44,413 bases of DNA from a virus, in IMG/VR virus record IMGVR_UViG_3300044769_000018. One strand, 5' to 3'. Position 1 is the stretch's first letter; each line of letters starts with the position of its first letter. Shown one piece after another: positions 16,586 to 30,342 of this stretch. The notes under the pieces were generated by a model. It made no database searches. It had not been told where the DNA came from and saw only the letters and a program-made list of their open reading frames with translations. Made by a program: the position numbers and the translations under genes.

Positions 16586-16943
16586 TACGTGCGTCCTTTG
16601 CACGAGCATCATCGAGTTTCATTAACTCGGCCGCTCTTGCTTCCTGACGTTCGATGTGTTCCTGCCATCGAAGTTTACTTAAGTCAGAAAGCCGTTTACG
16701 CTCCGCTTGCTCTTTAGTTACTTGTGCATCCAACGTATGCGGGCCACGTTGGATTTCTTCAATCTGTGGCGTATCAGGGAACATTATACGTTGGGATAGT
16801 TCATCGCACCGCTCACGTTCCCTAGCAAGTTGTGACTCAAGAAAGCTCACCTGACGAGTTAAGTATTCCTCTAGCTCAGTGAACTTAGGTGGAACAAAAA
16901 TCACCTTGAGGAATCTTAACAGCGCCCACCAAATTTGAATCAT
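16557..16943 (-). CDS. Hypothetical protein with N-terminal hydrophobic segment and coiled coil (128 aa)
   Basis: Track ORF, start-coupled (ATGA) to the terL stop. The N-terminus reads MIQIWWALLRFLKVIFV, followed by an E/R-rich helix. Confidence 0.55.
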   Translation of the reverse strand: MIQIWWALLRFLKVIFVPPKFTELEEYLTRQVSFLESQLARERERCDELSQRIMFPDTPQIEEIQRGPHTLDAQVTKEQAERKRLSDLSKLRWQEHIERQEARAAELMKLDDARAKDARNETASGQSS

Positions 16944-18538
16944 CGTTTTCTCGGCCGAACGCTAAAAGGAACGACTTTGCTCTCGGCATCGCGTGCGTGG
17001 ATATAAAACTGAGTCATATCACCACGCTTCTGTCCTTCGCCGTAGAACTTTTCCATCCGTGCCATGTGGTCAAAACGTCTCGCTGCTCTGTTGCTCGAAT
17101 CCCTGTACCGTGAGCACGCCTGCAAAAGGTATCTCACGCCATCGTATGGGTCGTCGCCCTCGAATTCTTTAACGTCCTCAGGATTCGCAGGGTCGTACAC
17201 GCAATTCGGAATAGCATCGATGACCGCTTGGCAATTCTCAAATATCTGAAGTCGGGGAAGATTTGTCTCTTCAGGCTCTTCCTCAAAGAACTTCACATAT
17301 TCATTATACTTGTCCTGCCCATAGTTTCTAAGTAGCTTTGATGCGAGCTCTGAGTTAAAAGCTCCAGCAATGTCTCTAGACTTTGGTTTGGGTGTCCACC
17401 TAAGATAATCGTGTAGTAGAAGCTTGCCCCCAATTCGGTCGTTAATTGCACGTTCAGGTACGTAGCCTGAATACTGCGTGAATTGCTGGTCGATAGTTTC
17501 AACGCCACGATTCTGCCATGCAGAGGGGTCGAGTGCAACTGTCTCAAGGTTATCATTTGCTGATAATCTCTTAAACTCAGAAGCCCACTCCGCAATCATC
17601 TTCCGCTTTTGAAAATATTCACGATAGAGATAAACTCGTCCATCGGGAGCAATTGCTGCCCAACCAATCCATACATGCGCTGCAAAGCCCCAATCGATAG
17701 CCGCGACACGAGGCCACCAGAATGGGATGGCAAAAGGTTCGATAACGTGACGAGCGTTAATAGGTTCGTCGGGCAAAGGCTCCAATCGGAAATTGAATAC
17801 CTGTCCTTCGAACGTGTACCAATCTCCATACTTCTTCGCCCGCTTCTCTGCTTCAGTTGGTAGCATCTCCAACTTAGCAACATACGTTGGGTCGTTTTCG
17901 AGAAGATGCTTATTATCTTCGACCCGCGCTGGTAGGTAAAACCGCTTGAGCCCGGTCTTCCTATCAACGATAATCTTTAAGCCTTCTCGTGCAGGGTCAA
18001 CAAATCTATTTCTGACCCATGTATGTCCAATATTACCGGGGTTCGAACCGGCCCTTGTAATCGCTGGTAGTTCTTTCGTTGACGACCGAACTCGGCTAGC
18101 TACCAAATACAAGTATTGATATTGGGTGAAGTGAGTTAGCTCATCCCAACCAACGTAGTTGTATTCGACTCCATCGTACTTGGTGATGTCCTTTTCATGT
18201 TCGGCGTGTCCAAAAGCCTGGTATCCACCGGCTGGAAAGGTCCATCGTTTCTTTTGTTCATTGTATTTCGCACCCGTTGATTCATACCAAGGGCGTGAAC
18301 GGATGATGATTTCAGCTTCTAACTCAGGGAATGTCCTTCTGAGAATGAGGCCTTTGTATCGAGGGTGCAGATGCCACTGACGAATCAACGGCAACATGTA
18401 GAGGATTTCAGTCTTACCCGGACCTGCGGCACCGCCGTACAATACTTCGAAGATATCATCTGGCAACGTTGTGAATGTCTCCTGTTTACGTGTAGGAGTC
18501 CATTCAACAACTTGCGGCTTTGTTAGCGTATCTTCCAT
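16940..18538 (-). CDS. terL: Terminase large subunit
   Basis: 532 aa. Walker A is GGAAGPGKTE, Walker B-like is YVGWDELTH, and the C-terminal nuclease-like region reads VAAIDWGFA. It lies upstream of the portal gene. Confidence 0.85.
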   Translation of the reverse strand: MEDTLTKPQVVEWTPTRKQETFTTLPDDIFEVLYGGAAGPGKTEILYMLPLIRQWHLHPRYKGLILRRTFPELEAEIIIRSRPWYESTGAKYNEQKKRWTFPAGGYQAFGHAEHEKDITKYDGVEYNYVGWDELTHFTQYQYLYLVASRVRSSTKELPAITRAGSNPGNIGHTWVRNRFVDPAREGLKIIVDRKTGLKRFYLPARVEDNKHLLENDPTYVAKLEMLPTEAEKRAKKYGDWYTFEGQVFNFRLEPLPDEPINARHVIEPFAIPFWWPRVAAIDWGFAAHVWIGWAAIAPDGRVYLYREYFQKRKMIAEWASEFKRLSANDNLETVALDPSAWQNRGVETIDQQFTQYSGYVPERAINDRIGGKLLLHDYLRWTPKPKSRDIAGAFNSELASKLLRNYGQDKYNEYVKFFEEEPEETNLPRLQIFENCQAVIDAIPNCVYDPANPEDVKEFEGDDPYDGVRYLLQACSRYRDSSNRAARRFDHMARMEKFYGEGQKRGDMTQFYIHARDAESKVVPFSVRPRKR

Positions 18539-18855: not shown

Positions 18856-19452
18856 TTATCCAACTTCAACTACGTCGTAATGAACTTTCTCACGCACAGG
18901 CGGTGCGTTGATAACCACCTGAATGCGGTTATCTGAAGTAACATCTTTAGGCCGCATGTTATCAGCAACCTTAGAAAGCTTCATAGCAACGTCGGCTTTA
19001 TCCTTCGCACCTAAACATTCGATATCCGATTCCGTCAAGATACCAAGCGTAGCTAAGGTGCGGGATAGTGCGAGCTTTTCGATGTCGTCTCGCGTTGCGT
19101 TCCTTGTTTTATCTGTTTCCCTTTTCAGTTCAGGAATGACGTATCCATCGCCCGTCCGACCATTCTTCGCCTGAGAAACGGTGGAATTGCTAACATGAAA
19201 CGCTTCAGCAATATCCGTTTGTTTTACTTCACCACTTGCTGCCAAAAGACCAATCGTAGTCCGGAGGAAATCTGGAATGTTCGTGTTTGCGCCACGACCA
19301 ATAGATTCCTTCGCTTGGACAACGAGCGTCGTTCCACTCGTCGATTCCTGGACTTCGATTGAAGCATCGGCAAAAGTGTTCGCAGTGCGTAATAAATAAT
19401 TATGTTTCGGGTCGAGGTGGTGTGCTAAGGTTTCCTTGTTTAAGAAATGCAT
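18856..19452 (-). CDS. HTH DNA-binding protein; positional candidate for the small terminase subunit
   Basis: 198 aa, the first gene of the minus arm. SD GGAGG lies 6 nt before the ATG. The helix-turn-helix-like segment is QTDIAEAFHVSNSTVSQAKNGR. Confidence 0.4.
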   Translation of the reverse strand: MHFLNKETLAHHLDPKHNYLLRTANTFADASIEVQESTSGTTLVVQAKESIGRGANTNIPDFLRTTIGLLAASGEVKQTDIAEAFHVSNSTVSQAKNGRTGDGYVIPELKRETDKTRNATRDDIEKLALSRTLATLGILTESDIECLGAKDKADVAMKLSKVADNMRPKDVTSDNRIQVVINAPPVREKVHYDVVEVG

Positions 19453-19517
19453 TGTACACCTCCCCGTTTATTCCAAGTGGTAGCCACTTGATGTTGAACT
19501 AGTGGCTTGACCGCCTT

Positions 19518-19547
19518 GTTGTACCACATCTAGCACTTGACAGTCAA
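19518..19547 (-). promoter_or_regulatory. Candidate sigma70-type promoter for the virion arm: TTGACT - 18 nt - TGgTACAAC (extended -10)
   Basis: Read on the minus strand, the -35 is the rc of 19542-19547 and the -10 is the rc of 19518-19523, preceded by TGG. The palindrome CAAGTGG-TAG-CCACTTG (19474-19490) lies in the predicted leader. Confidence 0.3.
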
Positions 19548-19646
19548 GGGGAAAAGTGCAAGGCTCGGGTCCGGTGCGCGCTATATATAGAGGTCAAGAG
19601 GTGCTTGGCTACCATGTATTATTTTAATTTTAAATTAATTTGAAAA

Positions 19647-19671
19647 TATGGGACCCTATTTTATGGGACCC
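19647..19671. repeat. Direct repeat TATGGGACCC x2 (15-bp period) inside a ~90-bp AT-rich tract (19611..19705)
   Basis: Copies at 19647-19656 and 19662-19671. The context is aaaaTATGGGACCCtatttTATGGGACCCaatttattttgaaaattatatttt. Confidence 0.9.
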
Positions 19672-19779
19672 AATTTATTTTGAAAATTATATTTTCCCAA
19701 TCGCAGAGTGATGTCGAGCGCCTTTAACTTTGCGCGCTGGGGGACCCGCTGCGGACGCCCATGCCCCTATGCTATCGAA

Positions 19780-19788
19780 TGATATAAT
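19780..19788 (+). promoter_or_regulatory. Candidate early promoter: perfect extended -10 (TGaTATAAT)
   Basis: TGATATAAT at 19780-19788 faces the plus-strand early genes. The -35 is poor. The first CCAGGTTTT copy starts 3 nt downstream. Confidence 0.4.
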
Positions 19789-19832
19789 GTCCAGGTTTTG
19801 GGGCAATTCACGCGCGTAAGGGTATGGGGGGA

Positions 19833-19880
19833 GTACCTCGGGCTCGCCATGCGAGAAAATAAACATGTACCTCGGGCTCG
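19833..19880. repeat. Direct repeat GTACCTCGGGCTCG x2
   Basis: Exact 14-mers at 19833-19846 and 19867-19880. The core CTCGGGCTC is the reverse complement of GAGCCCGAG found at 22505-22513. Confidence 0.9.
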
Positions 19881-19930
19881 AATCGTTTCTATTCCCTTGA
19901 CTCTGTCCCGTGGTTTGATATTCTGACCAT

Positions 19931-20152
19931 ATGACCATTACCTCACATCCCTTGCCCAAGTGTGCAGCCGATACCTATGTTGTCCGCACTCCCGCGATGG
20001 CTTACTCTTTTGAGCCATTCACGACGCACCGCGTCGCTACGCTCGCCGCTGCCGATACGCTCGCCGCTTCCCTGCCGTCTGCTAAGGTCCTGTGCAATGG
20101 CGTTCAGGTGTGCATCTATGTCAATGGTTTGCTAGTTCAGGGAGCCCGCTAA
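19931..20152 (+). CDS. Hypothetical early protein (73 aa), first gene of the high-GC island
   Basis: Track ORF. Its stop overlaps the next start (TAATG). The N-terminal PLPKCAADTY resembles SLPECAAVTY of the next ORF. Confidence 0.55.
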   Translation: MTITSHPLPKCAADTYVVRTPAMAYSFEPFTTHRVATLAAADTLAASLPSAKVLCNGVQVCIYVNGLLVQGAR

Positions 20153-20346
20153 TGCTTGTCTCACGTTCGTTGCCTGAGTGCGCCGCCGTTACATACGGTG
20201 AGTCTGCCATCCGTTTCATTGACTCTGCCCTCCGCGCTACAAACGACGCGCACGCAGGCGCAGCTACGCGAGCGGCTGTATTCGCCACTCGCACCGCTGC
20301 ACGCTACGCCTTGCGTTATCTCTACCCGAATGGAGCATCCTGCTAA
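20152..20346 (+). CDS. Hypothetical early protein (64 aa)
   Basis: Internal ATG of track ORF 20092..20346. TAATG coupling occurs at both ends. Confidence 0.55.
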   Translation: MLVSRSLPECAAVTYGESAIRFIDSALRATNDAHAGAATRAAVFATRTAARYALRYLYPNGASC

Positions 20347-20552
20347 TGATTAACAAAGACGGTAGCTACGGACCACGCGCCACGCAGCACGAACTCGCCG
20401 CCCTATACGGCGAGGCGTGTGTGCGTCACTTGGAATACCTCGCCGAGGTACATCCTGACCGATGGGCATTCTATGTCGCGCTAGTAGTTGAGGATGCGAT
20501 GTTTGCCGCTAACCATGGCCGTCGTGCCTTGCGCCAGTCGAGCCTACGCTAA
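20346..20552 (+). CDS. Hypothetical early protein (68 aa)
   Basis: Track ORF with TAATG coupling at both ends. Confidence 0.6.
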   Translation: MINKDGSYGPRATQHELAALYGEACVRHLEYLAEVHPDRWAFYVALVVEDAMFAANHGRRALRQSSLR

Positions 20553-20767
20553 TGGAAACGAATTGTGCTGTGTGCTGTGGCTCGGGAGTTGTCGCATCCA
20601 ATGGAGCCGACGATACCCGTAACGTCTGTCACGCATGCGGGGGCAAGGGAACCATTCGACTCTGCGTCGACTGCTACCAGCCCTCGGGTGAGTTCGACGT
20701 GTGCGACACTTGCTCAGACGTTCGGGAGTCGAGCTTTGACCACGAATGGAACGGCTATGACCACTAG
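20552..20767 (+). CDS. Cys-rich zinc-finger protein with two DnaJ-type CxxCxGxG motifs (71 aa)
   Basis: CAVCCGSG and CHACGGKG, plus CVDC...CDTC. Confidence 0.6.
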   Translation: METNCAVCCGSGVVASNGADDTRNVCHACGGKGTIRLCVDCYQPSGEFDVCDTCSDVRESSFDHEWNGYDH

Positions 20768-20969
20768 GGAACGCTACTACCTGAACGCGCACCTTGAACG
20801 CCTTGCCGATTGGCAGACCCGGAAGGCCATTGCAGCCAATCGGGAGCGCATTATACGCCGTAGGGAGTTCAGGCGCGCCGTTCGCGCTATGTACCTCGCG
20901 CGAGCCTTGCGGGTCATCCTTGCCGATACCCGCCGAATGAATGCCCGGATAGTGGCTCAAGGCTACTAA
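20757..20969 (+). CDS. Arginine-rich small protein (70 aa, 17 Arg)
   Basis: Internal ATG of track ORF 20565..20969: MTTRERYYLNAHLERLADWQTRKAIAANRERIIRRREFRRAVRAMY... It overlaps the upstream stop by 11 nt. Confidence 0.5.
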   Translation: MTTRERYYLNAHLERLADWQTRKAIAANRERIIRRREFRRAVRAMYLARALRVILADTRRMNARIVAQGY

Positions 20970-20985
20970 TCCAGAAACCTGGATT
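20968..20985 (+). promoter_or_regulatory. Hairpin AATCCAG-AAAC-CTGGATT straddling the stop codon (20967-20969) of the Arg-rich ORF; contains an inverted copy of CCAGGTTT
   Basis: 7-bp stem and 4-nt loop. 20971-20986 is the exact reverse complement of 21989-22004 (AAATCCAGGTTTCTGG). Confidence 0.6.
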
Positions 20986-21006
20986 TAACTTACCAAGGAT
21001 AGAATT

Positions 21007-21159
21007 ATGGAAAAGCAAGCACTTTGCCCGCATTGTCACAAAGTTAAGACAACCGTCCGCTATCGCCCCGACGCCTACGCTAGGGACGTGCGTGATGAAC
21101 AAGGCGCGATGATGATAGCGTGCGACGAATGCGCGCAAGCGAACGCGGACGACATCTAG
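21007..21159 (+). CDS. Small zinc-ribbon protein (50 aa), high-GC paralogue of 26148..26297
   Basis: Below the track cutoff: MEKQALCPHCHKVKTTVRYRPDAYARDVRDEQGAMMIACDECAQANADDI*. It aligns end to end (~55% identity by eye) with the 26148 ORF. Confidence 0.65.
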   Translation: MEKQALCPHCHKVKTTVRYRPDAYARDVRDEQGAMMIACDECAQANADDI

Positions 21160-21183
21160 CACGAACTCAGGGAGCAACGGAAC

Positions 21184-21218
21184 AAGGCCTGCCAATCGTC
21201 GGTAGGCCTTTTCTATTT
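21184..21218 (+). terminator. Rho-independent terminator
   Basis: AAGGCCT (21184-21190) pairs with AGGCCTT (21204-21210) around a 13-nt loop. The tail is TTCTATTT. Confidence 0.65.
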
Positions 21219-21223
21219 GGTCC

Positions 21224-21252
21224 TTGCACTGCAGGGGCGTTCTGAGTATAAA
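21224..21252 (+). promoter_or_regulatory. Candidate sigma70 promoter TTGCAC - 17 nt - TATAAA
   Basis: -35 at 21224-21229 and -10 at 21247-21252. The -10 context AGTATAAAGG recurs at 22559-22568. Confidence 0.45.
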
Positions 21253-21296
21253 GGCAGGTATGCCGGATTCACCGGCCACTAGCAGGGAGCAAAGAC

Positions 21297-21746
21297 ATGG
21301 CACGTGTAGCAACCAAGTTCGACGACCACAAGGATTTCGGGATTCTCGACCAGCCCGAAGTCACGCATGCGGACCTGACGTCCGAAGTTGTCTCAGTCGT
21401 GGCGTCCGACAAGGACAGCAAGCGGTCGGGCGAAGTCAAGGTCACGGTGTACGCGCTCGCGGATGGCGTGGAGAATCCGCTTGAGGCGATTCTCGCATTG
21501 TTCGGTGGGTCGCAGGCTGAACTCGCCAAGTTTGCCCTTGGTGCGCGCAACGACAGCATCAGGAACGCGGGCAAGGATTACGTCCGCGATTCCATCCTTG
21601 GACCTGAAAAGAAGATGGCTCAGGTCATTGCTCGCGTTGCGCGCGGGCTCAAGCTGGACGTCGACACCATCAAGGCCAAGGTGGCGAAGAATCCCGCGTA
21701 CCTCGATATGCTGTTGGAACTCGCGAAGAACGATGCTGCAGCCTAG
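21297..21746 (+). CDS. Hypothetical early protein (149 aa), GC3-rich
   Basis: Track ORF. GGAG lies 7 nt upstream of the ATG, and there is a strong G/C third-position bias. The C-terminus AKNPAYLDMLLELAKND weakly resembles AKSNPAIQAMLDAFKAKD of the 22667 ORF. Confidence 0.7.
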   Translation: MARVATKFDDHKDFGILDQPEVTHADLTSEVVSVVASDKDSKRSGEVKVTVYALADGVENPLEAILALFGGSQAELAKFALGARNDSIRNAGKDYVRDSILGPEKKMAQVIARVARGLKLDVDTIKAKVAKNPAYLDMLLELAKNDAAA

Positions 21747-21768
21747 CATCTAGTTCGTTCGGTCCGTA

Positions 21769-21900
21769 CCTGAGCCCGGTAGCCTACATGGTGCCGGGCT
21801 TTTCTGCGTCTATACGTATCCTCCCGCCATACCCTGAGCCCTACGCTCACATACGCTCGCCCTGAGCCCTTCCGAACGCGCATTGATACGTACTGAGCCC
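21769..21900. repeat. Cluster of CCTGAGCCC repeats (3 exact plus 1 variant)
   Basis: Exact copies at 21769-21777, 21833-21841 and 21861-21869. The variant ACTGAGCCC is at 21892-21900. Confidence 0.9.
21773..21805 (+). terminator. Rho-independent terminator
   Basis: AGCCCGG (21773-21779) pairs with CCGGGCT (21794-21800) around a 14-nt loop. The tail is TTTCT. Confidence 0.6.
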
Positions 21901-21990
21901 TAAAATTTTCAGGATGCCGTAAACCTGGCGTTCGCCAATTTTGAGGGGAGCGCAGTATTGGACCCATTAAGCGGTATTCGGAACCATAAA

Positions 21991-22006
21991 ATCCAGGTTT
22001 CTGGGT
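21991..22006 (+). promoter_or_regulatory. Hairpin ATCCAG-GTTT-CTGGGT (CCAGGTTT copy)
   Basis: 6-bp stem (one G.U) and 4-nt loop. It is the inverted partner of the 20968 hairpin. Confidence 0.5.
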
Positions 22007-22283
22007 GGACTATGAAACTCGAGAATTCGGCTTATTGGATTGAGCTGTTGAGAATGAGTTATTAGTGGTAGCCACAGCCCGAAATTCCACAAAACACCTT
22101 ACATCTACACCAAGGAAACACCAAGGGCTCACTAAACTAGCACGCAAGGCGCACTACGTTTCCACGCAGGGCATTTAACGCTAAGCCCTTGCAGTCGAAG
22201 CACTTAGCTTGACGATAAGCCTTGACTCCCCCTCCCCGTCTATACGTACCGGGCTCCCGATGTCCTCCTAAGGTGACATCCAA

Positions 22284-22383
22284 TATTTTGGATTCTTTTA
22301 GTTTAGTGGCTGTTCTTATTCTTTTCTTTTTTATTTTTTTTTTTTTAATAAGAAGAATAATAGAAATAAGGAATAACTAATCA
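22284..22383. repeat. AT-rich low-complexity tract with a T13 homopolymer (22334..22346)
   Basis: cttttcttttttaTTTTTTTTTTTTTaataagaagaataatagaaataagg. It is flanked by GC-rich repeats. Confidence 0.9.
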
Positions 22384-22417
22384 TGTAAACTTTACACACC
22401 CTATGTAAGACTTACAT
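22384..22417. promoter_or_regulatory. Two tandem palindromic operator-like sites, TGTAA-N3-TTACA, centres 20 bp apart
   Basis: TGTAAactTTACA at 22384-22396 and aTGTAAgacTTACAt at 22403-22417. A third copy is at 26632-26644. Confidence 0.5.
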
Positions 22418-22452
22418 ACGGGGTCTATAGCAGGGTAGACAGGGGAAGGGTA

Positions 22453-22510
22453 CCTGAGCCCGCAATCCCCGCAAGTGCAGGCGAACGTGGCACTTGCCGC
22501 GCCTGAGCCC
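22453..22510. repeat. CCTGAGCCC(G) repeats x2
   Basis: Copies at 22453-22461 and 22502-22510. Confidence 0.9.
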
Positions 22511-22535
22511 GAGTGTATCTCTAGTGAGAATAACG

Positions 22536-22565
22536 TTAGGTCCTAGCGGCATCCTGTAGTATAAA
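22536..22565 (+). promoter_or_regulatory. Candidate promoter TTAGGT - 18 nt - TATAAA
   Basis: Shares the 10-mer AGTATAAAGG with the 21224 promoter. The -35 is weak. Confidence 0.3.
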
Positions 22566-22666
22566 GGGTATACTTCTACGCCCACTTTGTCCTCAGAAGT
22601 GGACATTCTTTGCCTTTCGTCACGTCGTGATTAGTTATCACGCATTAAGAATTGGAGACCCGGTAC

Positions 22667-23068
22667 ATGGATACGATATTCGACTCAGAAACAATTCGGG
22701 CGATACAGACGGATGAGTTGTCCAGCATCCAGGAATTGTCTATCGTCGAGATTTCTAATCGCATCGACGCTTATCAAAAGGCCTCGCGCGAGCTGATGCT
22801 CAGAATGAACAAGGCATCGGAAGAAATGCATCGCCGCTTGTCGCAAAAGACGAACGACGAATTGGAAACTTTGATAGAGCGCGTGCCCGAGGGTGTTTCA
22901 AGCACGGCATACAATCGCCTGCACAATACGCTCCTCAATCGAAAAGGGTACGTTCCGAAAGCACGCGCTCCTAAGATTGAGGATAGGCTGGTGACAAAGC
23001 TCAATGCCGCAGCCAAGTCCAATCCAGCGATTCAAGCGATGCTGGACGCCTTCAAAGCAAAAGATTAA
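22667..23068 (+). CDS. Hypothetical early protein (133 aa), helical
   Basis: Track ORF 22652.., trimmed to ATG 22667. GGAG lies 9 nt upstream. Confidence 0.65.
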   Translation: MDTIFDSETIRAIQTDELSSIQELSIVEISNRIDAYQKASRELMLRMNKASEEMHRRLSQKTNDELETLIERVPEGVSSTAYNRLHNTLLNRKGYVPKARAPKIEDRLVTKLNAAAKSNPAIQAMLDAFKAKD

Positions 23069-23079
23069 CTTTCAATTCA

Positions 23080-23101
23080 CTTGGAACGCCAGGTTTTCAA
23101 G
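23080..23101 (+). promoter_or_regulatory. Hairpin with 8-nt loop CGCCAGGT, 12 nt after a stop codon
   Basis: CTTGGAA pairs with TTTCAAG (7 bp, one G.U). The loop is identical to that of the 26311 hairpin. Confidence 0.5.
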
Positions 23102-23125
23102 CCCGGTAAAATCCTAGGAAAGAAA

Positions 23126-23506
23126 ATGTCAACATACGGCATCGAAGGGCGCGCATCGCATCTTAAACGAGACTGCACCGTTCGCGCGCTCCACGTAGCA
23201 TCCGGCATCGATTACGATATGTGCTATTTGTTTCTCGCGGCTGCAGGTCGCAAGAATAACTGTGGCGCGTATACGTCCGATTGGCTCCCCGTCTATCGGA
23301 AACTCGGCTTGTGTCAGATTGATGACCTAATCAATTTGACGCATGAAGTTTTGCCATGCGATAACGTGATTATCTGCATCCGTGGTCACATCTATGCCAT
23401 TCGCAACGGCGTACACTCAGACGGCCCTTACGCTTTCCAGTCTGGCCTGCGTCGCAACATTCAATTCGCTTGGCGCATTCCTGCATCGTTCATTCAAAAG
23501 GATTAG
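23126..23506 (+). CDS. Early protein with papain-fold-like Cys...His arrangement (putative cysteine peptidase/amidase)
   Basis: Track ORF 23081.., trimmed to ATG 23126 (AGGA 6 nt upstream). It has DCTVRAL near the N-terminus, RGHIYAIRNGVHSD about 80 aa later, and is 126 aa long. Confidence 0.3.
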   Translation: MSTYGIEGRASHLKRDCTVRALHVASGIDYDMCYLFLAAAGRKNNCGAYTSDWLPVYRKLGLCQIDDLINLTHEVLPCDNVIICIRGHIYAIRNGVHSDGPYAFQSGLRRNIQFAWRIPASFIQKD

Positions 23507-23509
23507 ACA

Positions 23510-23674
23510 ATGCTACTTTCAAAGCTTGAAACACTCAGAATACTTGGCAGTATCGCCAATCACATCGGGTACCGATACAGCACGAAATATGGTCCTGTCG
23601 GTTCCCTTGCCGCAGACAGCGATGCACTACGTATCATCACATCAGCCGCTGACCAAGTTTTAGCAGAGGATTAG
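23510..23674 (+). CDS. Hypothetical small protein (54 aa)
   Basis: Below the track cutoff: MLLSKLETLRILGSIANHIGYRYSTKYGPVGSLAADSDALRIITSAADQVLAED*. It is bounded by the repeated junction AGGATTAGACAATG at both ends. Confidence 0.5.
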   Translation: MLLSKLETLRILGSIANHIGYRYSTKYGPVGSLAADSDALRIITSAADQVLAED

Positions 23675-23677
23675 ACA

Positions 23678-23926
23678 ATGTATATCGGATTCTTCGAAGC
23701 AAAGCATCGCACGTTCCAATCTGAGCAACACGCATCCTGCGTTCCATCGATGTTCGTGCAGGTGTCATGCAATTATGGCGCGCGTGTCACGCCAATCTGC
23801 AATTCAAGCTGTTCAGTCGTCTTGTTTGAATCCATCGATGCTATTCACGAATACTGCCGCGCTCACGGGCTAGAGTTCGCAACATGCACGACAGCATTAC
23901 CATCGACGGTTCGCACCGCACCTTAG
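23678..23926 (+). CDS. Hypothetical Cys-rich protein (82 aa)
   Basis: Track ORF. Its start lies in the conserved junction AGGATTAGACAATG. Confidence 0.55.
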   Translation: MYIGFFEAKHRTFQSEQHASCVPSMFVQVSCNYGARVTPICNSSCSVVLFESIDAIHEYCRAHGLEFATCTTALPSTVRTAP

Positions 23927-23949
23927 CATCGCACGCTAGCGTTCGGGCT

Positions 23950-23982
23950 GAGCATCTAACACTCTCCAGGTTTTAGATGCTC
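23950..23982 (+). promoter_or_regulatory. 10-bp hairpin GAGCATCTAA / TTAGATGCTC with CCAGGTT in the 13-nt loop
   Basis: The arms are perfect complements. There is no U-tract afterwards, so it is not a canonical terminator. Confidence 0.55.
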
Positions 23983-24029
23983 TACCAGAATTCTAGACTT
24001 TGTAGTTCTTTCAACTCAGGGAGCAACCA

Positions 24030-25598
24030 ATGGCAAAGCTTATCGAATTGTGCAAGTATTGCGGACTACCCGCGATTGAAAAGAAGAAGACACAACTCAG
24101 CAAAGACTCATTCCTAATCAAATTGGAATGTGGTCACTCTTCCATCGTCAAGGTTAAGTACGTCTCACGCGATATCACGACGCGCACTGGCAAGAAGCCA
24201 TTTCCGTTTCAGTATCAGGGAATTGAATTCATCGAGCGTACATCCTTCCGATGCATCATCGCCGATGAAATGGGATTAGGGAAGACGATTCAAACGAACG
24301 TTGCCCTATTCCTGCATCCGGAAGTTATTCCCGTTTTGTTTCTCGTTAAGGCGGGCCTGCGTCGGCAATACGAAATTGAATTGTTCGATGTCACCGACGA
24401 CATCATGATTCAAACGATTGACTCATCGAAGGAAAAGGTATTCAAATTCCCTTGGAATATCATTTCCTACGACACGCTCGCCCGCATGAATTCGGACGAT
24501 GCAGCGAAGAAGTTCGCGCATATCAAAACAATCGTGCTTGATGAATGCCAATACATCAAGAATGAAGACGCAAAGCGTACGAACGCCGTAAGACTTTTGA
24601 TACAGAAAGTCGGCATTCAGAACATCATCGGCATGTCGGGCACGCCTATTAAGAATAAGGCAGACGAATTCTTCCCTATTCTGAATATGATTGCTCCAAC
24701 CAAGTTTCCGAGCAAGTACATCATGATGCGTCGTTACTTCGAATTCTGGACGGATGCGCAAGGCCAGTATCACATCATCCGTGCGAAGCCGGAGTTCTAC
24801 GATGCTTTGGATGGGATTATGATTAGACGAACAAGGGAAGAAGTCGCACCCGAATTGCCGACCATCCGTCGAGGTTTCTTTAACACCGAAATGGAGAATA
24901 AAGAATTGCGCCGCGCGTATGGCGACATTCAAAGGGAATTCGATGAATTCATGGATTCCAAAGACGGCGAGCCCAACGCATCGGACTATACGAATATCCT
25001 CGGATTCTTTGCGCGCATGCGTCGTATCACGGGCATGGCGAAAATCGGTCCCTGCGTCGAACACGTCACGGATTTTCTTCTTTCAACCGACAGGAAAATT
25101 GTCGTGTTCGGTCATCACAAAGAAACTCTTGATTCATTGAAGGAGGTTCTCGACACGTGGGCGAAGCAAGGCGGTTGGAATGAATGCCTGCACCTCAAGG
25201 CATCATTAGATGCCGACCAGCGTACCGATGTCGTGACCAAGTTCAGGGAAGACCCAAACTCCAGGATTCTCATCGCATCTACACTTGCATCAGGCGAAGG
25301 GCTCAATCTGCAGTTCTGTTCAGACGCGGTCATGCTTGAGCGCCAATGGAATCCAGCGAATGAAGAGCAGGCCGAAACACGCTTTACCCGCTTTGGTTCG
25401 ACAGCGGAACACGTCAACGTTACCTATATGATATCGGTCGGCACGATTGACGAATGGTTAACCGAGCTTGTGGAAAAGAAGCGTTCCTTGATTAGCAACG
25501 TTATCGACCGCGACGAGAACAATTGGGAAGAGTCTTCTTTGATGAAGGAGCTTGCATCGGCAATCTATGCGGGCGGAGGTAAACGATGGACATTCTAA
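24030..25598 (+). CDS. SNF2-family (SF2) helicase/translocase with N-terminal zinc finger
   Basis: CKYC...CGH, motif I DEMGLGKT, motif II VLDECQYIKN, motif III MSGTPIKNK, and motifs V-VI ASGEGLNLQ / RQWNPANEEQAETRFTRFG. Confidence 0.85.
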   Translation: MAKLIELCKYCGLPAIEKKKTQLSKDSFLIKLECGHSSIVKVKYVSRDITTRTGKKPFPFQYQGIEFIERTSFRCIIADEMGLGKTIQTNVALFLHPEVIPVLFLVKAGLRRQYEIELFDVTDDIMIQTIDSSKEKVFKFPWNIISYDTLARMNSDDAAKKFAHIKTIVLDECQYIKNEDAKRTNAVRLLIQKVGIQNIIGMSGTPIKNKADEFFPILNMIAPTKFPSKYIMMRRYFEFWTDAQGQYHIIRAKPEFYDALDGIMIRRTREEVAPELPTIRRGFFNTEMENKELRRAYGDIQREFDEFMDSKDGEPNASDYTNILGFFARMRRITGMAKIGPCVEHVTDFLLSTDRKIVVFGHHKETLDSLKEVLDTWAKQGGWNECLHLKASLDADQRTDVVTKFREDPNSRILIASTLASGEGLNLQFCSDAVMLERQWNPANEEQAETRFTRFGSTAEHVNVTYMISVGTIDEWLTELVEKKRSLISNVIDRDENNWEESSLMKELASAIYAGGGKRWTF

Positions 25599-25723
25599 TT
25601 CGTCTCGCGATTCTTTGCACGGTTACAATAGTGGCGTACTCAATTTATACAAACGAAATTGAGTACACCATTCCATCGTTCGCTTTGCTTATCGTGCTCG
25701 TCTACACTCTGTCAACGCTCTAG
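25586..25723 (+). CDS. Small two-TM membrane protein (45 aa)
   Basis: Below the track cutoff: MDILIRLAILCTVTIVAYSIYTNEIEYTIPSFALLIVLVYTLSTL*. It overlaps the helicase stop by 13 nt. Confidence 0.45.
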   Translation: MDILIRLAILCTVTIVAYSIYTNEIEYTIPSFALLIVLVYTLSTL

Positions 25724-25724
25724 G

Positions 25725-25961
25725 ATGCTAAAGATGAATGAAACTCAAGTTAATGAATCGCACAGGCTCGCCGTCTACATGGAGCATGAAGACGAAATGG
25801 TTTGTTTGTTCGCGGGCGAGATTGAGCGGACGGAAGGATTTCTCAAGTTCTGGAAACTCTATCGTCCATACACGAACATCGAAGTGCAAAAGCTTTCAAC
25901 GCTAGGCTCTAAGACAACTATCTACCGTGGCGAGGCGCGCGACTATACGCGAGGATTCTAG
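25725..25961 (+). CDS. Hypothetical protein (78 aa)
   Basis: Track ORF 25659.., trimmed to ATG 25725 directly after the preceding stop. Confidence 0.5.
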   Translation: MLKMNETQVNESHRLAVYMEHEDEMVCLFAGEIERTEGFLKFWKLYRPYTNIEVQKLSTLGSKTTIYRGEARDYTRGF

Positions 25962-25962
25962 A

Positions 25963-26151
25963 ATGAATCACTACCTAAGCTTCATCGTTGCTATTCTCAC
26001 GATTCCATACCGTGCTACGATAGCGGAACGTGTGAGGCTATCGACCATTTCAATGCCGACCATCTACCATTCGCGTGCGTGGCACGAATTCCAGGTTTTG
26101 AGCATCGCATCGTTCCACCTTGTCCTCGACATCGAAAGGTTTAGACAATGA
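25963..26151 (+). CDS. Hypothetical protein (62 aa); contains a CCAGGTTTT copy
   Basis: Track ORF 25927.., trimmed to ATG 25963. Coding status is uncertain. Confidence 0.35.
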   Translation: MNHYLSFIVAILTIPYRATIAERVRLSTISMPTIYHSRAWHEFQVLSIASFHLVLDIERFRQ

Positions 26152-26297
26152 AAATGAAGCTCTGCCCACACTGTGGTCGTCTGTCTGTCACGGTTCTGTA
26201 TCGTCCAGATTGGTACGCTAGGGACGTTAACAATATCGTTGGCGCAATGTGGATTGCGTGCAATTATTGCGCTACAGAGAATGCGCAGGATATCTAA
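26148..26297 (+). CDS. Small zinc-ribbon protein (49 aa), paralogue of 21007..21159
   Basis: MKMKLCPHCGRLSVTVLYRPDWYARDVNNIVGAMWIACNYCATENAQDI*. The start lies in the junction AGGTTTAGACAATG. Confidence 0.65.
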   Translation: MKMKLCPHCGRLSVTVLYRPDWYARDVNNIVGAMWIACNYCATENAQDI

Positions 26298-26310
26298 AAT
26301 CTTTAACCTA

Positions 26311-26328
26311 GCAAACGCCAGGTTTTGC
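26311..26328 (+). promoter_or_regulatory. Hairpin GCAAA / TTTGC with 8-nt loop CGCCAGGT, 14 nt after a stop codon
   Basis: The loop sequence is the same as in the 23080 hairpin. Confidence 0.45.
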
Positions 26329-26344
26329 GCCTCCCAAACAAACT

Positions 26345-26386
26345 AGCCCGCTGCCGATAACTAATCGGTTGCGGGCTTTGTCGTTT
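26345..26386 (+). terminator. Rho-independent terminator (two-tier stem)
   Basis: AGCCCGC-t-GCCGAT / aacta / ATCGGT-t-GCGGGCT, followed by TTGTCGTTT. Confidence 0.65.
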
Positions 26387-26406
26387 CTAATCGGGTCCGA
26401 CCCACA

Positions 26407-26464
26407 CCTGAGCCCGCAGGAACGGCCGGCATCCTGAGCCCGTAGGGTGAGCTAGCCCGAGCCC
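26407..26464. repeat. CCTGAGCCCG x2 plus variant CCCGAGCCCG
   Basis: Exact copies at 26407-26416 and 26433-26442. The variant is at 26455-26464. Confidence 0.9.
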
Positions 26465-26579
26465 GTATCGTGGCCTGTAGCCCGTCCTATTGCGTCCGAG
26501 CGCGTCCGCTCCCTGTTAGCCTGAGCTTCGACCTGCAAGCCCGAGGTAGACTGTCCACTTTTCTGGACATATTTTCCTC

Positions 26580-26609
26580 TTGTGGTAGCTAGGCGACCTA
26601 TGGTAAAAT
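26580..26609 (+). promoter_or_regulatory. Candidate promoter TTGTGG - 18 nt - TGgTAAAAT (extended -10)
   Basis: -35 at 26580-26585. TG at 26601-26602 and TAAAAT at 26604-26609. Confidence 0.4.
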
Positions 26610-26631
26610 CTGGCAGAGCCCACCATACCTA

Positions 26632-26644
26632 TGTAATTTTTACA
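26632..26644. promoter_or_regulatory. Operator-like palindrome TGTAA-TTT-TTACA just downstream of the 26580 promoter
   Basis: Third copy of the TGTAA-N3-TTACA site. It shares the left flank cctATGTAA with the 22403 copy. Confidence 0.5.
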
Positions 26645-26702
26645 CCCCCCTCACTTAGCTGTAAGAAACCACAACCGCAGAAAACCCAAAGAAAAGGACA
26701 CA

Positions 26703-26918
26703 ATGCAAATCCAGAAAAGAATCAAAGGATACACTCGACGCCCGTACGGAACAAAGGTCATCGATGAAATCGAGCACGCCATCGAAAAGGAATGCGCACG
26801 CTATAACGTTTCAAGAAGTTTCGTCATTGCGAATGCACTTGCTTTTGTCTTCAACATAAAGACCGAGAGCTACATCCCAAAGACCAGGAAAATCCTCCAA
26901 CTCAGGAAGCGCGCATGA
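26703..26918 (+). CDS. Ribbon-helix-helix (CopG/Arc-like) regulator candidate (71 aa)
   Basis: The pattern is strand-helix-helix: PYGTKVI / DEIEHAIEKECARYN / VSRSFVIANALAFVF. It is the first gene after the promoter/operator. Confidence 0.45.
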   Translation: MQIQKRIKGYTRRPYGTKVIDEIEHAIEKECARYNVSRSFVIANALAFVFNIKTESYIPKTRKILQLRKRA

Positions 26919-27160
26919 TTAACGTAAAGATTTACAAAGACAACGCGACCAATAAGTATTTACTCTCAAGCAATTGCATCACGTGCAAGCGTAACATCGT
27001 GGTAACGGTCGAGCCAATGGAGCTTTTTAATTTGCAGCGTGGCGTGCTCATTCAAAATGCTTTACCCAATGTTAATGAGGACCAACGTGAGTTCCTCATC
27101 TCAGGCATATGTGGAAAGTGTTTCGACAAGATGTTCGTGGAGCCAGACGATGAAGATTAG
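26915..27160 (+). CDS. Zinc-ribbon protein (81 aa)
   Basis: CITC...CGKC. ATGA-coupled to the RHH gene. Confidence 0.6.
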   Translation: MINVKIYKDNATNKYLLSSNCITCKRNIVVTVEPMELFNLQRGVLIQNALPNVNEDQREFLISGICGKCFDKMFVEPDDED

Positions 27161-27329
27161 CGTTAAAGTAACCATCAACGCACCGGAAACGTCTACCGAA
27201 CTTGAAGTAATTGAGTACGTTGAAGAAGCAATTAGATGCTGGCGCGGCTCATGGGCACCATCAAATCCTTTCTTTCAACTTGAAGATAAAGATTTTCAGG
27301 TAACGAAAGCAGATGGCACCGAAGATTGA
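27150..27329 (+). CDS. Hypothetical protein (59 aa)
   Basis: Internal ATG of track ORF 27039..27329 (MKISVKVTINAPE...). It overlaps the upstream stop. Confidence 0.5.
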   Translation: MKISVKVTINAPETSTELEVIEYVEEAIRCWRGSWAPSNPFFQLEDKDFQVTKADGTED

Positions 27330-27660
27330 ATTCGTTGAAGCGTGCAACACTTTAAGCGTAGCGATGCTTAATTATAAAGTCATTCATCGTTACGCTTTAA
27401 ACATTCCTTGGTCGTTCAAGTTTGAGAAACGTGCAAAGCAATACGACCCAGTGGAGATACTCTACATGCACGTCTTTGAAACTTCAACGCTCCCTGCATA
27501 CCACATCGCATTCAACAAGCTAGTCAAAAAAGGATACCCAATCGCAACTCTCCTCATCTTGATGCAGTTATCAAATGGCGTGTGGAAACGCTTCATCGGT
27601 AACGAATACGCAACGCATCGAGACACATTTCAAACTATCACAGGAATCTACGTTGACTAA
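27313..27660 (+). CDS. Hypothetical protein (115 aa)
   Basis: Track ORF. No motif recognised. Confidence 0.6.
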   Translation: MAPKIEFVEACNTLSVAMLNYKVIHRYALNIPWSFKFEKRAKQYDPVEILYMHVFETSTLPAYHIAFNKLVKKGYPIATLLILMQLSNGVWKRFIGNEYATHRDTFQTITGIYVD

Positions 27661-28525
27661 CTCACCTTCCACATCGACAAATGGAAAAGAAAAGCTCGTC
27701 ATCAGCATCGATTCTCAGGTGCTCGCCGGTATTCAAACGTGTAATCAACAGGCCGCGTATCGTTTCATCGATTCCATCGAACCAAGAGACTATTCGATGG
27801 AATCAATTCAGCTCGGCCTCGTTCTACATGAAGCAATGGCCGAGCATTACTCCACGTTTCATAAGCTGCCAAGTAACATTTTACGAAACAACGTTGCGAC
27901 TCGGATGGAAAGCTATGCAGCCGCTAAGACAATGCTTTCCCATTCGCAAGTCAACGCGCTCATCGACATCTATCGGCAGTACCAAGCGAAATACATCACA
28001 GAGGATTGGGTTGTTGAGCGAGATACGAACGACAATCCATTGGTGGAAAGTACGTTCGCTAAAACTCTGTATGAAGATGCTGAGATTCATATCCTATACA
28101 CGGGCATCACGGACCTTGTATTGAGGAAGCCATACCAAGTTCCAGTAGACCATAAATCGTTTGGCACATACTTCAAGCCAGCAATCATGAGCAACCAGTT
28201 TCATGGCTACATGTGGGCATTGAACTCACGCAACTTGATTATCAATCGCATCGGTGTGAAATCAAAAACAGGTACGTTCGAACGCATCGTTGTTACGAAA
28301 CCGTTAAGCTTAATCGAAGAATGGAAGAACGATGCGATTCGTGATATCCTCAGACATCTAGACATGATGCACGAGGGAAACTTTAGAAGGAATCGAGAAG
28401 CGTGTGGAATGTATGGCGGATGCAGATTCATTAACCTTTGTTCCGCTGAACCTTCTCATCGTTCCTATTTGATTGCGAACAACTACCAAGTCGTGCCCGT
28501 TTGGAATCCTTTGAACCGAGACTAA
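27653..28525 (+). CDS. PD-(D/E)xK nuclease of the Cas4/RecB-like type with Cys cluster
   Basis: Same frame as track ORF 27575..28525. I prefer the TTG at 27653, which has AGGA 7 nt upstream. Motifs are GITD...VDHK (D...DxK), an N-terminal Cys (QTCNQQ) and a C-terminal C-x5-C-x5-C (CGMYGGCRFINLC). Confidence 0.6.
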   Translation: MTNSPSTSTNGKEKLVISIDSQVLAGIQTCNQQAAYRFIDSIEPRDYSMESIQLGLVLHEAMAEHYSTFHKLPSNILRNNVATRMESYAAAKTMLSHSQVNALIDIYRQYQAKYITEDWVVERDTNDNPLVESTFAKTLYEDAEIHILYTGITDLVLRKPYQVPVDHKSFGTYFKPAIMSNQFHGYMWALNSRNLIINRIGVKSKTGTFERIVVTKPLSLIEEWKNDAIRDILRHLDMMHEGNFRRNREACGMYGGCRFINLCSAEPSHRSYLIANNYQVVPVWNPLNRD

Positions 28526-28530
28526 GCAAT

Positions 28531-28794
28531 ATGCAAAAACGAAACATTCCATTCGACCTCATCGCTAAGCCGATTCACATCACACTTGAGCCAGCGCACG
28601 TTGACGTGATTCAATCAATCTTCGAAGCGTTCTTCAGCTCGGCTCGTGTGATGGAGATAGATGTACCACGAGACATTAAACTAGACGCCGCGGCCGTACT
28701 GCACAAGATTATTGTCGAGTACGAACGGCAAATTGAGGAAGCGAACGATGCCCAGGAAGCGAGCAACCCACACGCACCAGTACAAAAAGGTTAA
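28531..28794 (+). CDS. Hypothetical protein (87 aa)
   Basis: Track ORF 28501.., trimmed to ATG 28531. Confidence 0.55.
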   Translation: MQKRNIPFDLIAKPIHITLEPAHVDVIQSIFEAFFSSARVMEIDVPRDIKLDAAAVLHKIIVEYERQIEEANDAQEASNPHAPVQKG

Positions 28795-29047
28795 GCTCAA
28801 GATTGCATATGTTTATCGTTGCATGCTATCAAATTGCAACCATTACATCATGCCTGAGTTTATCATGGGAAAGGAATCAGTATGCCCATCGTGCAATCAC
28901 GAGTTCGTGATAGACAAATACGCATCGATGCGCACGAATCCTATTTGCATCGACTGTCGAAAGGAGCATCCGACACCATTAACCAATTCATCAAAGCCGG
29001 ATTCCAATGTTATTGCAGACATCCTGAAACGGCATGGCGTACACTAG
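28748..29047 (+). CDS. Zinc-finger protein (start uncertain)
   Basis: Track ORF 28712..; the first ATG is at 28748. Cys pairs: CMLSNC...CPSC...CIDC. Confidence 0.5.
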   Translation: MPRKRATHTHQYKKVKLKIAYVYRCMLSNCNHYIMPEFIMGKESVCPSCNHEFVIDKYASMRTNPICIDCRKEHPTPLTNSSKPDSNVIADILKRHGVH

Positions 29048-29105
29048 ACAACAAACTCTATACCGAATGCCTCATCTGTGGTAAAGAAAGCAAAGGGATA
29101 AAGAT

Positions 29106-29243
29106 ATGAAACTCTTGAGCGATAGGATACAAGAGTTCATCGACTGGCTCGAACAATACACCGACTTTGATATGTGGCATCAAAGCGTTAAAGATGCAAC
29201 CCAACGTAAGCTCATCGAAGTGCTAACAGAAAAGGACAATTAA
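29106..29243 (+). CDS. Hypothetical small protein (45 aa)
   Basis: Below the track cutoff: MKLLSDRIQEFIDWLEQYTDFDMWHQSVKDATQRKLIEVLTEKDN*. It fills an otherwise empty gap. Confidence 0.45.
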   Translation: MKLLSDRIQEFIDWLEQYTDFDMWHQSVKDATQRKLIEVLTEKDN

Positions 29244-29244
29244 A

Positions 29245-29535
29245 ATGAAGCAGAAGATTGTTATCAGCATCGACCTCGTATGCGAACTCAGTTCAGCGGT
29301 CTACCTCGTGAATCAGATTCTCCAGGTTGCGAACATCGACTCGATTGATTCTTTGTACATGCGAGACGAGAAGTACAACACGTACATCAACATCTCCACG
29401 ATGAATCGTTTGCGCGACGAACTCAATCCTACACCTGCACCAAAGGTTGATGAAGCTAAAGAAAAGGAATCACTCGTGCTATCGATGTTTGAATCTGCGC
29501 ATGAGCAGAAGACTATCGAGGAAGGTAGTTTTTAA
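29245..29535 (+). CDS. Hypothetical protein (96 aa)
   Basis: Track ORF. It abuts the next gene's ATG. Confidence 0.6.
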   Translation: MKQKIVISIDLVCELSSAVYLVNQILQVANIDSIDSLYMRDEKYNTYINISTMNRLRDELNPTPAPKVDEAKEKESLVLSMFESAHEQKTIEEGSF

Positions 29536-30342
29536 ATGCCCAACATCGAAGACGCATTAGCGAAAGAAGAATTCTTAATGCTCTTCAAAGGCGAGGTAAG
29601 CAGTGGCAAATCAATCGCCGCTGCTTCCTTTCCTAACCCGTATGTGTTTGACATGGAGAGTAGGATACGTTCGGTTGCAGCGTATCACTTTCCACGTGGC
29701 AAGCGTGACTTATCGTACGATACGTACACGCGCGAGGATTATCCAAAGTTCGACAAACGTTGGGATGAGTTCATCGAATTGAGCAAGATGAAACGATTCC
29801 CTTACGATACAGTGATTGTTGATTCCCTTACATCGTGTGCAGACCTTTTGTTGCAGCACGTCATTAGACTAAAAGGTTTGGATGGTAAGGGAAAGAAGAT
29901 TGCTGGCATCGCGGTCAATAGCATCGAAGATTACAATGCTGAGACCGCTATGTTGACTGAGTTAGTCATGTTCCTCCAGCAAATTAAATGTAAGTACAAG
30001 ATTCTTGTCGCACACGTCATCAAGACTGAGAAAACAAATCTCAACGATGATTCAAGTGTAGTAACAAGACAGCTCTTGACCGGCGGAAAGAAAATAGCGG
30101 CGCGTATCCCGGGTTATTTTGACGAGATTTACCATTTCGAACAACGCTCGGTGGGTAACAAACCGCAATTCGTTGCACGCACGGTCAATTCTGGAGAAGA
30201 TTTCGCACGAACCACTCTCAAGCTGCCTAAAGAGATTGATTTCACGAATCGAAACTTCTTCGAGATTATCGAACCATCTATTCAGGAGGTGATGAACCTA
30301 GGCAAATTAAACGTCGTACCTATCAACCAAGCACCAAAGTAA
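29536..30342 (+). CDS. AAA_24 / Sak4-like RecA-fold ATPase
   Basis: Walker A FKGEVSSGKS and Walker B TVIVDSLT, 268 aa. It is followed by a DUF669-like gene, the usual pairing. Confidence 0.6.
   Translation: MPNIEDALAKEEFLMLFKGEVSSGKSIAAASFPNPYVFDMESRIRSVAAYHFPRGKRDLSYDTYTREDYPKFDKRWDEFIELSKMKRFPYDTVIVDSLTSCADLLLQHVIRLKGLDGKGKKIAGIAVNSIEDYNAETAMLTELVMFLQQIKCKYKILVAHVIKTEKTNLNDDSSVVTRQLLTGGKKIAARIPGYFDEIYHFEQRSVGNKPQFVARTVNSGEDFARTTLKLPKEIDFTNRNFFEIIEPSIQEVMNLGKLNVVPINQAPK

Follow-up and report, generated by a model that had tools for sequence, protein, structure and literature searches.

The complete genome of an uncultured soil phage (IMG/VR record IMGVR_UViG_3300044769_000018; about 44.4 kb, 44,413 bases, hereafter the window) carries eight exact copies of the octamer CCAGGTTT, seven of them in non-coding DNA and all of them within the early region. 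The word, its positions, its conservation in a sister lineage and its turnover between close relatives are directly evident from the sequences. We infer from this pattern that the octamer may be read on duplex DNA, with repression as the proposed effect, i.e., that CCAGGTTT is a double-stranded DNA recognition word for a putative factor acting on two early operons, with copies at operator and at roadblock positions. This reading is tentative and is given a probability of roughly 30%. It is ranked before a role as linker at the boundaries of exchangeable gene cassettes, which in turn precedes the absence of any dedicated function, an element acting on early mRNA and, last, a promoter or terminator element. 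The DNA recognition and cassette linker readings are compatible with each other.

Count and placement of the octamer

An exhaustive count on both strands recovered the eight copies listed in a first-pass annotation of the window, six on the plus strand (19791, 21993, 23089, 23966, 26091, and 26318) and two on the minus strand (20975 and 21921), and none elsewhere in the 44,413 bases. Shuffled genomes contain 0.82 copies on average and four at most, and eight or more were reached in none of 100 shuffles. As the word had been picked after the fact, it was additionally compared with all octamers of the genome, of which 558 reach at least six copies and 110 at least eight, whereas only CCAGGTTT joins eight copies with a span of 6.5 kb (P about 1.2e-5 per word and about 1e-3 after correction). 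The word is sharply defined because one-mismatch variants are not enriched (33 versus about 32.5 expected from a simple count). Its 5' flank is rich in A, with AA at -4 and -3 in seven and six of the eight copies, respectively, and CCAGGTTT is the invariant core of an asymmetric word of about 12–13 bp, R-A-A-n-K-CCAGGTTT-Y. Both sub-families proposed in the first-pass annotation can be read directly in the sequence: CGCCAGGTTT is present at 23087 and 26316 and inverted at 21921, and the 16-mer AAATCCAGGTTTCTGG at 21989–22004 has its exact reverse complement at 20971–20986. Orientation is mixed, with six of eight copies on the plus strand or 6:3 when a further copy from sister lineage B is added (binomial P about 0.25). 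A widely shared mobile word was also considered and rejected, as scanning viral contigs for AACGCCAGGTTTTG gave more than 118 unrelated matches, mostly coding and single-copy.

Numbered from left to right, the copies are located as follows.

Site 1: 19791–19798, plus strand; 2 nt after the perfect extended -10 TGATATAAT (19780–19788) of the first early promoter, covering the predicted start point
Site 2: 20975–20982, minus strand; within the palindrome TCCAGAAACCTGGA (20970–20983), 1 nt after the stop codon of an arginine-rich gene
Site 3: 21921–21928, minus strand; GAACGCCAGGTTTA on that strand, in the 905-nt non-coding spacer between the operons
Site 4: 21993–22000, plus strand; core of the 16-mer AAATCCAGGTTTCTGG, with a CCAG/CTGG mini-hairpin
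Site 5: 23089–23096, plus strand; in the 57-nt gap between genes 22652–23068 and 23126–23506
Site 6: 23966–23973, plus strand; in the 13-nt loop of the pre-helicase hairpin 23950–23982
Site 7: 26091–26098, plus strand; the sole copy inside a gene (25963–26151, codons E-F-Q-V-L)
Site 8: 26318–26325, plus strand; AACGCCAGGTTTTG, between the zinc-ribbon-2 gene (stop codon 21 nt upstream) and the intrinsic terminator of the operon (about 20 nt downstream)

Virion genes are transcribed leftward from 19452 (tail proteins, a head protein, and the large terminase at 16940–18538), whereas early and replication genes run rightward from 19931 to 36009 and encode, among others, an SNF2 helicase (24030–25598), a PD-(D/E)XK nuclease, an AAA_24 protein, a UDG-PolA fusion and a DUF3987 protein. 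The following rightward transcription units (TU) were derived from promoters, terminators and gene overlaps.

TU1: 19.8–21.2 kb, plus strand; early operon
TU2: single gene 21297–21746, plus strand
TU3: 22.56–26.37 kb, plus strand; early operon
TU4 onwards: replication genes

TU1 and TU3 are proposed to be two early operons served by the host RNA polymerase. According to the curated gene set, non-coding DNA makes up 7.2% of the genome, and seven of the eight copies fall into it (P about 7e-8). The first-pass annotation had emphasized confinement of the word to the early arm, and copies are indeed absent elsewhere. However, 67% of the non-coding DNA lies within 19453–26702, and the intergenic bias alone gives confinement to the arm with P about 0.06. 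Hence, this confinement is largely a by-product, and intergenic location is the primary property. Within TU1 and TU3 genes mostly overlap or abut. Gaps of at least 37 nt, whether internal or terminal, number four (20970–21006, 23069–23125, 23927–24029, and the stretch after 26297), and all contain the motif, whereas it is present in none of four comparable gaps in TU4 and beyond (Fisher test, about 0.014).

Conservation, turnover and mosaic junctions

In phage record collections, neither a close nor a cultured relative was found, and searching for closer relatives via two early proteins gave none or only distant ones. The genome itself was recovered at an identity of at least 99.9% from several soil and sediment samples, and contigs with an identical helicase represent the same phage (at least 99.9%). 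For comparison, sister lineage B, 82–86% identical to the window, was assembled piecewise from contigs L232/L233, L234/L235, L230, L228, and L008/L144, with overlaps being 100% identical, while lineage C (L231) is 93% identical and covers 21184–22167. Conservation in related phages, suggested as a check by the first-pass annotation, is seen in close lineages, whereas early regions of relatives at 80% helicase identity or less (L001–L007, L011, L012, L146, and L147) do not contain a single copy. K-mer enrichment in these distant relatives did not give a substitute word in a comparable layout. A candidate substitute in L001, CTGAGCGC at the positions of sites 1 and 6, was dismissed, as L146 does not match and the agreement is regarded as a coincidence with the abundant GAGCGCT of L001.

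Sites 1, 6, 7, and 8 represent all copies in DNA shared with lineage B, and all four are intact there (P about 0.005 at 85% identity). At site 1, promoter and motif are identical in B (L232, position 2660), while L001 and L146 retain the -10 but carry other sequence at the motif position. The hairpin and loop at site 6 are identical over 35 of 35 nt, followed by 40 nt with about 12 changes. Site 7 is part of a 32-nt identical block, which is not significant alone. At site 8, 14 nt are identical in B between a non-homologous gene upstream and 11 diverged nucleotides downstream, after which the terminator is 100% identical. In place of the zinc-ribbon-2 gene, lineage B has an unrelated 69-aa gene, and homology restarts at AACGCCAGGTTTTG. 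There, the word is retained in B without its local stem, which points to recognition of sequence and not of structure. The other copies show turnover. Site 2, the left end of a 191-nt cassette, is missing from B together with that cassette, the breakpoint being 2 nt from the octamer. Sites 3 and 4 are kept in lineage C, whereas in B the counterpart of site 3 is degenerate and site 4 belongs to a missing segment. At site 5, the gap in B has only 23 nt and lacks, by an indel, the 21 nt bearing the motif. Conversely, an additional copy, inverted and bordering a replaced patch, is found in B at a different gene boundary (P about 0.03 for 1,021 nt of DNA private to B). Two cassettes are associated with these changes.

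Zinc-ribbon-1 cassette: 20973–21163, plus strand; motif hairpin, ribosome-binding site and 50-aa gene 21007–21159, absent in lineage B
Zinc-ribbon-2 cassette body: 26152–26313, plus strand; gene 26148–26297, with sites 7 and 8 as direct motif copies on either side

The two 50-aa zinc-ribbon genes (21007–21159 and 26148–26297) are paralogous and behave as dispensable cassettes, neither of them being found in lineage B. A weak Pfam hint (E-value 0.006) relates them to the Lar restriction-alleviation family.

This mixture of conservation and turnover bears on two alternatives. According to the first, which we regard as doubtful, the copies have no dedicated function and are young remnants of a few short duplications or insertions in a hyperplastic early region. 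When the 13-mer and 16-mer sub-families are each taken as one event, five independent origins remain, and hundreds of octamers reach five copies. The lack of a degenerate halo, the absence from relatives at 80% helicase identity or less and the dispensability of four copies in B likewise fit copies that persist because of their youth. However, even with five founders, four fall into non-coding DNA, which is 7% of the genome, and only about 0.15 such words are expected genome-wide. Moreover, all four comparable copies are intact across 14–18% divergence, those at sites 6 and 8 as conserved islands in diverged surroundings, and B has independently gained a copy at another gene boundary.

The second alternative, a linker marking cassette boundaries or recombination, is a possible explanation and stands next to the favored reading. 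It sees the copies as short intergenic modules carried with, or delimiting, small orphan-gene cassettes and providing microhomology or a hot spot for cassette insertion, deletion and exchange. Indeed, five of the eight copies are in or at most 5 nt from segments not shared with B, although such segments account for only about 18% of the region (P about 0.01), and three breakpoints coincide with a motif edge, i.e., at site 2 (left end of zinc-ribbon-1), at site 8 (right end of zinc-ribbon-2) and at the B-specific copy (left edge of the replaced patch). Moreover, sites 7 and 8 form direct repeats around a swapped gene. Spread by copying is suggested by the extended identities of 13 and 16 nt, by the missing degenerate copies and by the occurrence of the word in just two or three young lineages. 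The phage also has recombination genes of its own (the PD-(D/E)XK nuclease and the AAA_24 protein). PeSL cassettes of T4-type phages (PMC2839356) offer a precedent, here without a promoter. On the other hand, further breakpoints of the region use AGGWTTAGACAATG, TAATG overlaps, AACTCAGGGAGCAAC or no junction word, and in two of the three exact breakpoint cases the motif is present in one partner only. Viable joints fall at gene boundaries, and therefore the association between motif and breakpoints may partly reflect just that. In addition, 8–14 bp are short for homologous exchange, a recombinase or homing nuclease was not detected, and a linker leaves the position of site 1 on a start point and the strict conservation of sites 1, 6, and 8 unexplained. 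The reading as a DNA recognition word, in turn, can accommodate the junctions, as copies that are conserved islands between fast-swapping small genes would also coincide with mosaic joints.

Besides CCAGGTTT, other repeated words were seen in the same region. The junction word AGGWTTAGACAATG, or AGG(A/T)TTAGACAATG, is present at 23499–23512, 23667–23680, and 26137–26150, and AGG(A/T)TTAGACAATG is found at three of the four breakpoints of two gene replacements between the window and B (23510–23674 and 26152–26313); the fourth, the right end of 26152–26313, falls at site 8 of CCAGGTTT. A second repeat, CCTGAGCCC, has eight intergenic copies, all on the plus strand (21770, 21834, 21862, 21893, 22454, 22503, 26408, and 26434), in spacers that follow the terminators of TU2 and TU3 and precede the promoters of TU3 and TU4. 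It has counterparts in lineage B and, as CTGAGCGC or CTCAGCCC, in L001; the repeats are possible activator or UP-type sites. Finally, the palindrome TGTCC(N6-8)GGACA follows the predicted start points of TU3 and TU4 (22588–22605 and 26552–26569, in opposite orientations), is conserved in L001 and is a candidate for a shared operator.

Promoter, hairpin and RNA context

The extended -10 reported beside site 1 by the first-pass annotation was confirmed as TGATATAAT, 2 nt before the motif. Its statement that the word is neither a sigma-70 promoter nor an intrinsic terminator holds as well: a consensus scan was empty at sites 2–8, with totals not above those of shuffled sequences, and manual inspection did not reveal a -35/-10 pair at proper spacing. 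A role as promoter for a modified or phage-specific RNA polymerase, or as terminator of an unusual type, is very improbable, and site anatomy already largely refutes this reading. Some features may be quoted in its favor, i.e., the hexamers GAAAAT, TATGAA, and TAAAAT exactly 10 nt downstream of sites 3, 4, and 5, respectively, and a -10-like hexamer directly upstream of sites 1, 2, and 4. However, no partner element recurs at a constant distance, promoters at sites 2 and 3 would be directed away from all genes, site 7 is intragenic and a promoter at site 8 would read into a terminator, while the start predicted at site 5 would delete the ribosome-binding site. Neither an RNA polymerase nor a sigma factor gene was detected, large proteins do not show a DxDGD-type motif, and for a terminator the hairpins lack a following U-tract. 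Downstream of site 1, at 19897–19933, only 6 nt separate the end of a strong promoter (TTGACT-16-TGaTATTCT) from the ATG at 19931, which lacks a ribosome-binding site, and the first early gene may be translated from a leaderless mRNA.

Several copies had been described as displayed in hairpin loops after stop codons. The stems quoted around CGCCAGGT do exist in the sequence (CTTGGAA/TTTCAAG at 23080 and GCAAA/TTTGC at 26311), as does the 10-bp stem 23950–23959/23973–23982 with the motif in a 13-nt loop. A shared loop context, however, is not supported, as minimum-energy folds leave the stems at 23080 and 26311 unused (z-scores of -0.7 and -0.8). In the local fold of site 5, the motif is paired with ACTTGG instead of being in a loop, and folds of sites 1 and 7 gave no structure. 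Significant folding is found for the pre-helicase hairpin (z-score -5.3) and, taken alone, for the mini-palindromes at sites 2 and 4 (-4.6 and -4.3), i.e., for three of the eight units (sites 2, 4, and 6), with the others being marginal.

Pre-helicase hairpin: 23950–23982, plus strand; 10-bp stem and 13-nt loop, a family-wide structure hosting the motif only in this lineage

This hairpin is significant in the window, L001 and L146 (z-scores from -5.2 to -5.5), where L001 and L146 have other sequence at the same spot, without the motif and with a compensatory change from G-C to A-U between the two. As a structure (window, 23950–23982; L001, 7312–7350; L146, 4936–4975), it comprises a stem of 10–13 bp and a loop of about 13 nt rich in CTCWCC, lacks a U-tract and is kept across lineages at about 72% nucleotide identity. 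Covariance models of Rfam 15 gave no match at E-values up to 1 in 19000–27500.

The same data weaken a function at the RNA level, for which we see little probability. Here, the word would be a cis element on early mRNAs, serving as site for a ribonuclease or RNA-binding protein (RegB-like inactivation) or as seed for pairing of sense and antisense transcripts. Six of the eight copies are sense, a stop codon precedes each of sites 2, 5, 6, and 8 by 1–40 nt, a strong conserved hairpin exposes site 6 in its loop, and plus-strand RNA at site 3 is complementary to sites 8 and 5 over 12–13 nt. GGUUU also fits the loose preference of RNase E, R-N-cut-W-U-U. Nevertheless, three of the nine known copies are antisense, which a sense-only RNA model makes about 20-fold less probable than a strand-blind one, and site 1 is cut by the transcription start. 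A common structural context is missing, B retains the word of site 8 without the stem, an Rfam match was not obtained, and a nuclease candidate was not found. Recognition of duplex DNA is thus preferred over an RNA element because of the mixed orientation (6:3), the copy on the start point and the retention of the word without its stem. For antitermination, proposed as one possible role in the first-pass annotation, the same holds: three of nine copies are antisense, a common hairpin does not exist and site 1 is only partly transcribed because it lies on the transcription start. Its more general claim of a specific recognition element stands insofar as the word is sharp and intergenic, intact at all four comparable sites in B and newly acquired there, but not with respect to a common hairpin-loop RNA context. 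An N/boxB-like pairing with the arginine-rich 70-aa protein (20757–20969) is not supported, since homologues are encoded in the motif-less L146 (64%) and L147 (36%) and since lineage B has the arginine-rich protein (86%) without an adjacent hairpin.

Some further observations concern the host and the remaining genome. A host search in genome contigs gave only matches of at most 31% identity. GATC is completely absent across 1–44413 (0 sites versus 220 ± 13 expected), and several 6-bp palindromes are strongly depleted (observed versus expected: GTGCAC, 1 versus 9.7; ATTAAT, 1 versus 8.6; ACCGGT, 1 versus 8.1; GAGCTC and CTCGAG, each 1 versus 7.4), a strong restriction avoidance that suggests a host with a GATC-cutting restriction system. 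In this genome without GATC, a small open reading frame (ORF) at 31950–32381 shows a sub-threshold match (E-value 5e-5) to PF05869, the phage Dam N6-adenine methyltransferase family. For CCWGG, depletion is only mild (37 versus about 61), and a Dcm/EcoRII-type interpretation of the octamer was therefore discarded. The region 36065–44381 is another leftward block, encoding large proteins without assigned function. Among them is a 1518-aa probable ejected virion protein (36065–40621, minus strand), in which residues of about 520–720 (WYHGTG...GSGVYLTD...E) resemble by eye the H-Y-E signature of ADP-ribosyltransferases; Pfam, PHROGs and PDB sequence searches gave no match for this stretch, leaving the assignment unsupported.

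Mode of action and comparison with known systems

In the favored reading as a DNA recognition word, a sequence-specific factor, encoded by the phage or its host, would bind CCAGGTTT on duplex DNA in both early operons. Site 1, on the start point of the first early promoter, would be in operator position, and the other copies, found in every sizeable gap of the early operons and in the spacer between them, would be in roadblock positions comparable to the "stoperators" of mycobacteriophage L5. Binding might then switch off or throttle early transcription while sparing the replication operon. Several points weigh against this scheme. No regulator tracking the motif was seen in Pfam and PHROGs scans of about 40 ORFs, and in the search for a co-occurring trans factor no gene followed the motif across lineages. 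Just one copy, site 1, is at a promoter, and the sister lineage does without four of the eight. Protein-binding sites usually include degenerate copies, and their lack here looks more like recent copying. Furthermore, roadblocks of the L5 type depend on orientation, and two of the eight copies are reversed. Neither an integrase nor a repressor was detected in the above scans, in which most early ORFs turned out as orphans, so that one of them may encode a novel binder; the phage therefore looks lytic, which makes an immunity system unlikely.

It is rather unlikely that the octamer represents something more novel, either a promoter-less cassette end, i.e., a hairpin-prone module of about 15–25 nt insulating and mobilizing orphan early genes as a miniature, integrase-free analogue of integron attC or PeSL, or a stoperator-like early shut-off in a strictly lytic phage. 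If the word is indeed an operator or roadblock site, then multi-site transcriptional silencing, so far known mainly from temperate mycobacteriophages, would also time early genes in a lytic phage. Should it mark cassette boundaries, the shuffling of orphan early genes in soil phages could be approached through a concrete sequence. In both cases, practical value is modest for an uncultured phage and a word limited to two or three near-identical lineages.

Among known systems, RegB of phage T4 targets GGAG in ribosome-binding sites of early genes and, acting on RNA, has all its targets in sense orientation. Similarly, CCAGGTTT is a short word in intergenic parts of early transcripts that would allow an early-specific shut-off, but a third of its copies is antisense and a nuclease homologue was not found. 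Lambdoid boundary or linker sequences, as reportedly described by Clark et al. in 2001 for HK620, are short conserved sequences at gene boundaries with mosaic joints. These are common to many phages, whereas the present word is found in two or three very close lineages and, in addition, on the start point of a promoter.

The PeSL cassettes of T4-type phages resemble the present arrangement in that they are repeats of a hyperplastic region, placed behind stop codons and ahead of the ribosome-binding sites of small orphan early genes, that they coincide with indels or replacements between close relatives and that direct copies flank swapped genes (PMC2839356, PMC4122927). A PeSL, however, consists of a strong sigma-70 promoter plus a terminator-like stem-loop, whereas here one copy is by a promoter, three of eight units have significant stem-loops and the unit is much shorter.

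The repressor of L5 has as its binding site an asymmetric 13-mer, which is found at promoters as well as within short intergenic spaces (PMC9283540, PMC3029335). Compared with this system, the octamer has an 8-bp core in eight copies instead of 13 bp in 24–34 copies, is restricted to two early operons (19791–26325) instead of being distributed genome-wide, is not uniformly oriented (six of eight copies, or six of nine with the B copy) and belongs to an apparently lytic phage without a detected helix-turn-helix repressor or integrase. In common with cluster A mycobacteriophages (L5 gp71 and Bxb1 gp69), however, there is a short asymmetric word in multiple copies, located mostly in intergenic DNA near stop and start codons (PMC9283540, PMC3029335). 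One copy is at an early lytic promoter, here site 1, which is conserved in lineage B, and, as in these phages, the consensus is lineage-specific and copy number varies between close relatives (PMC9283540, PMC3029335).

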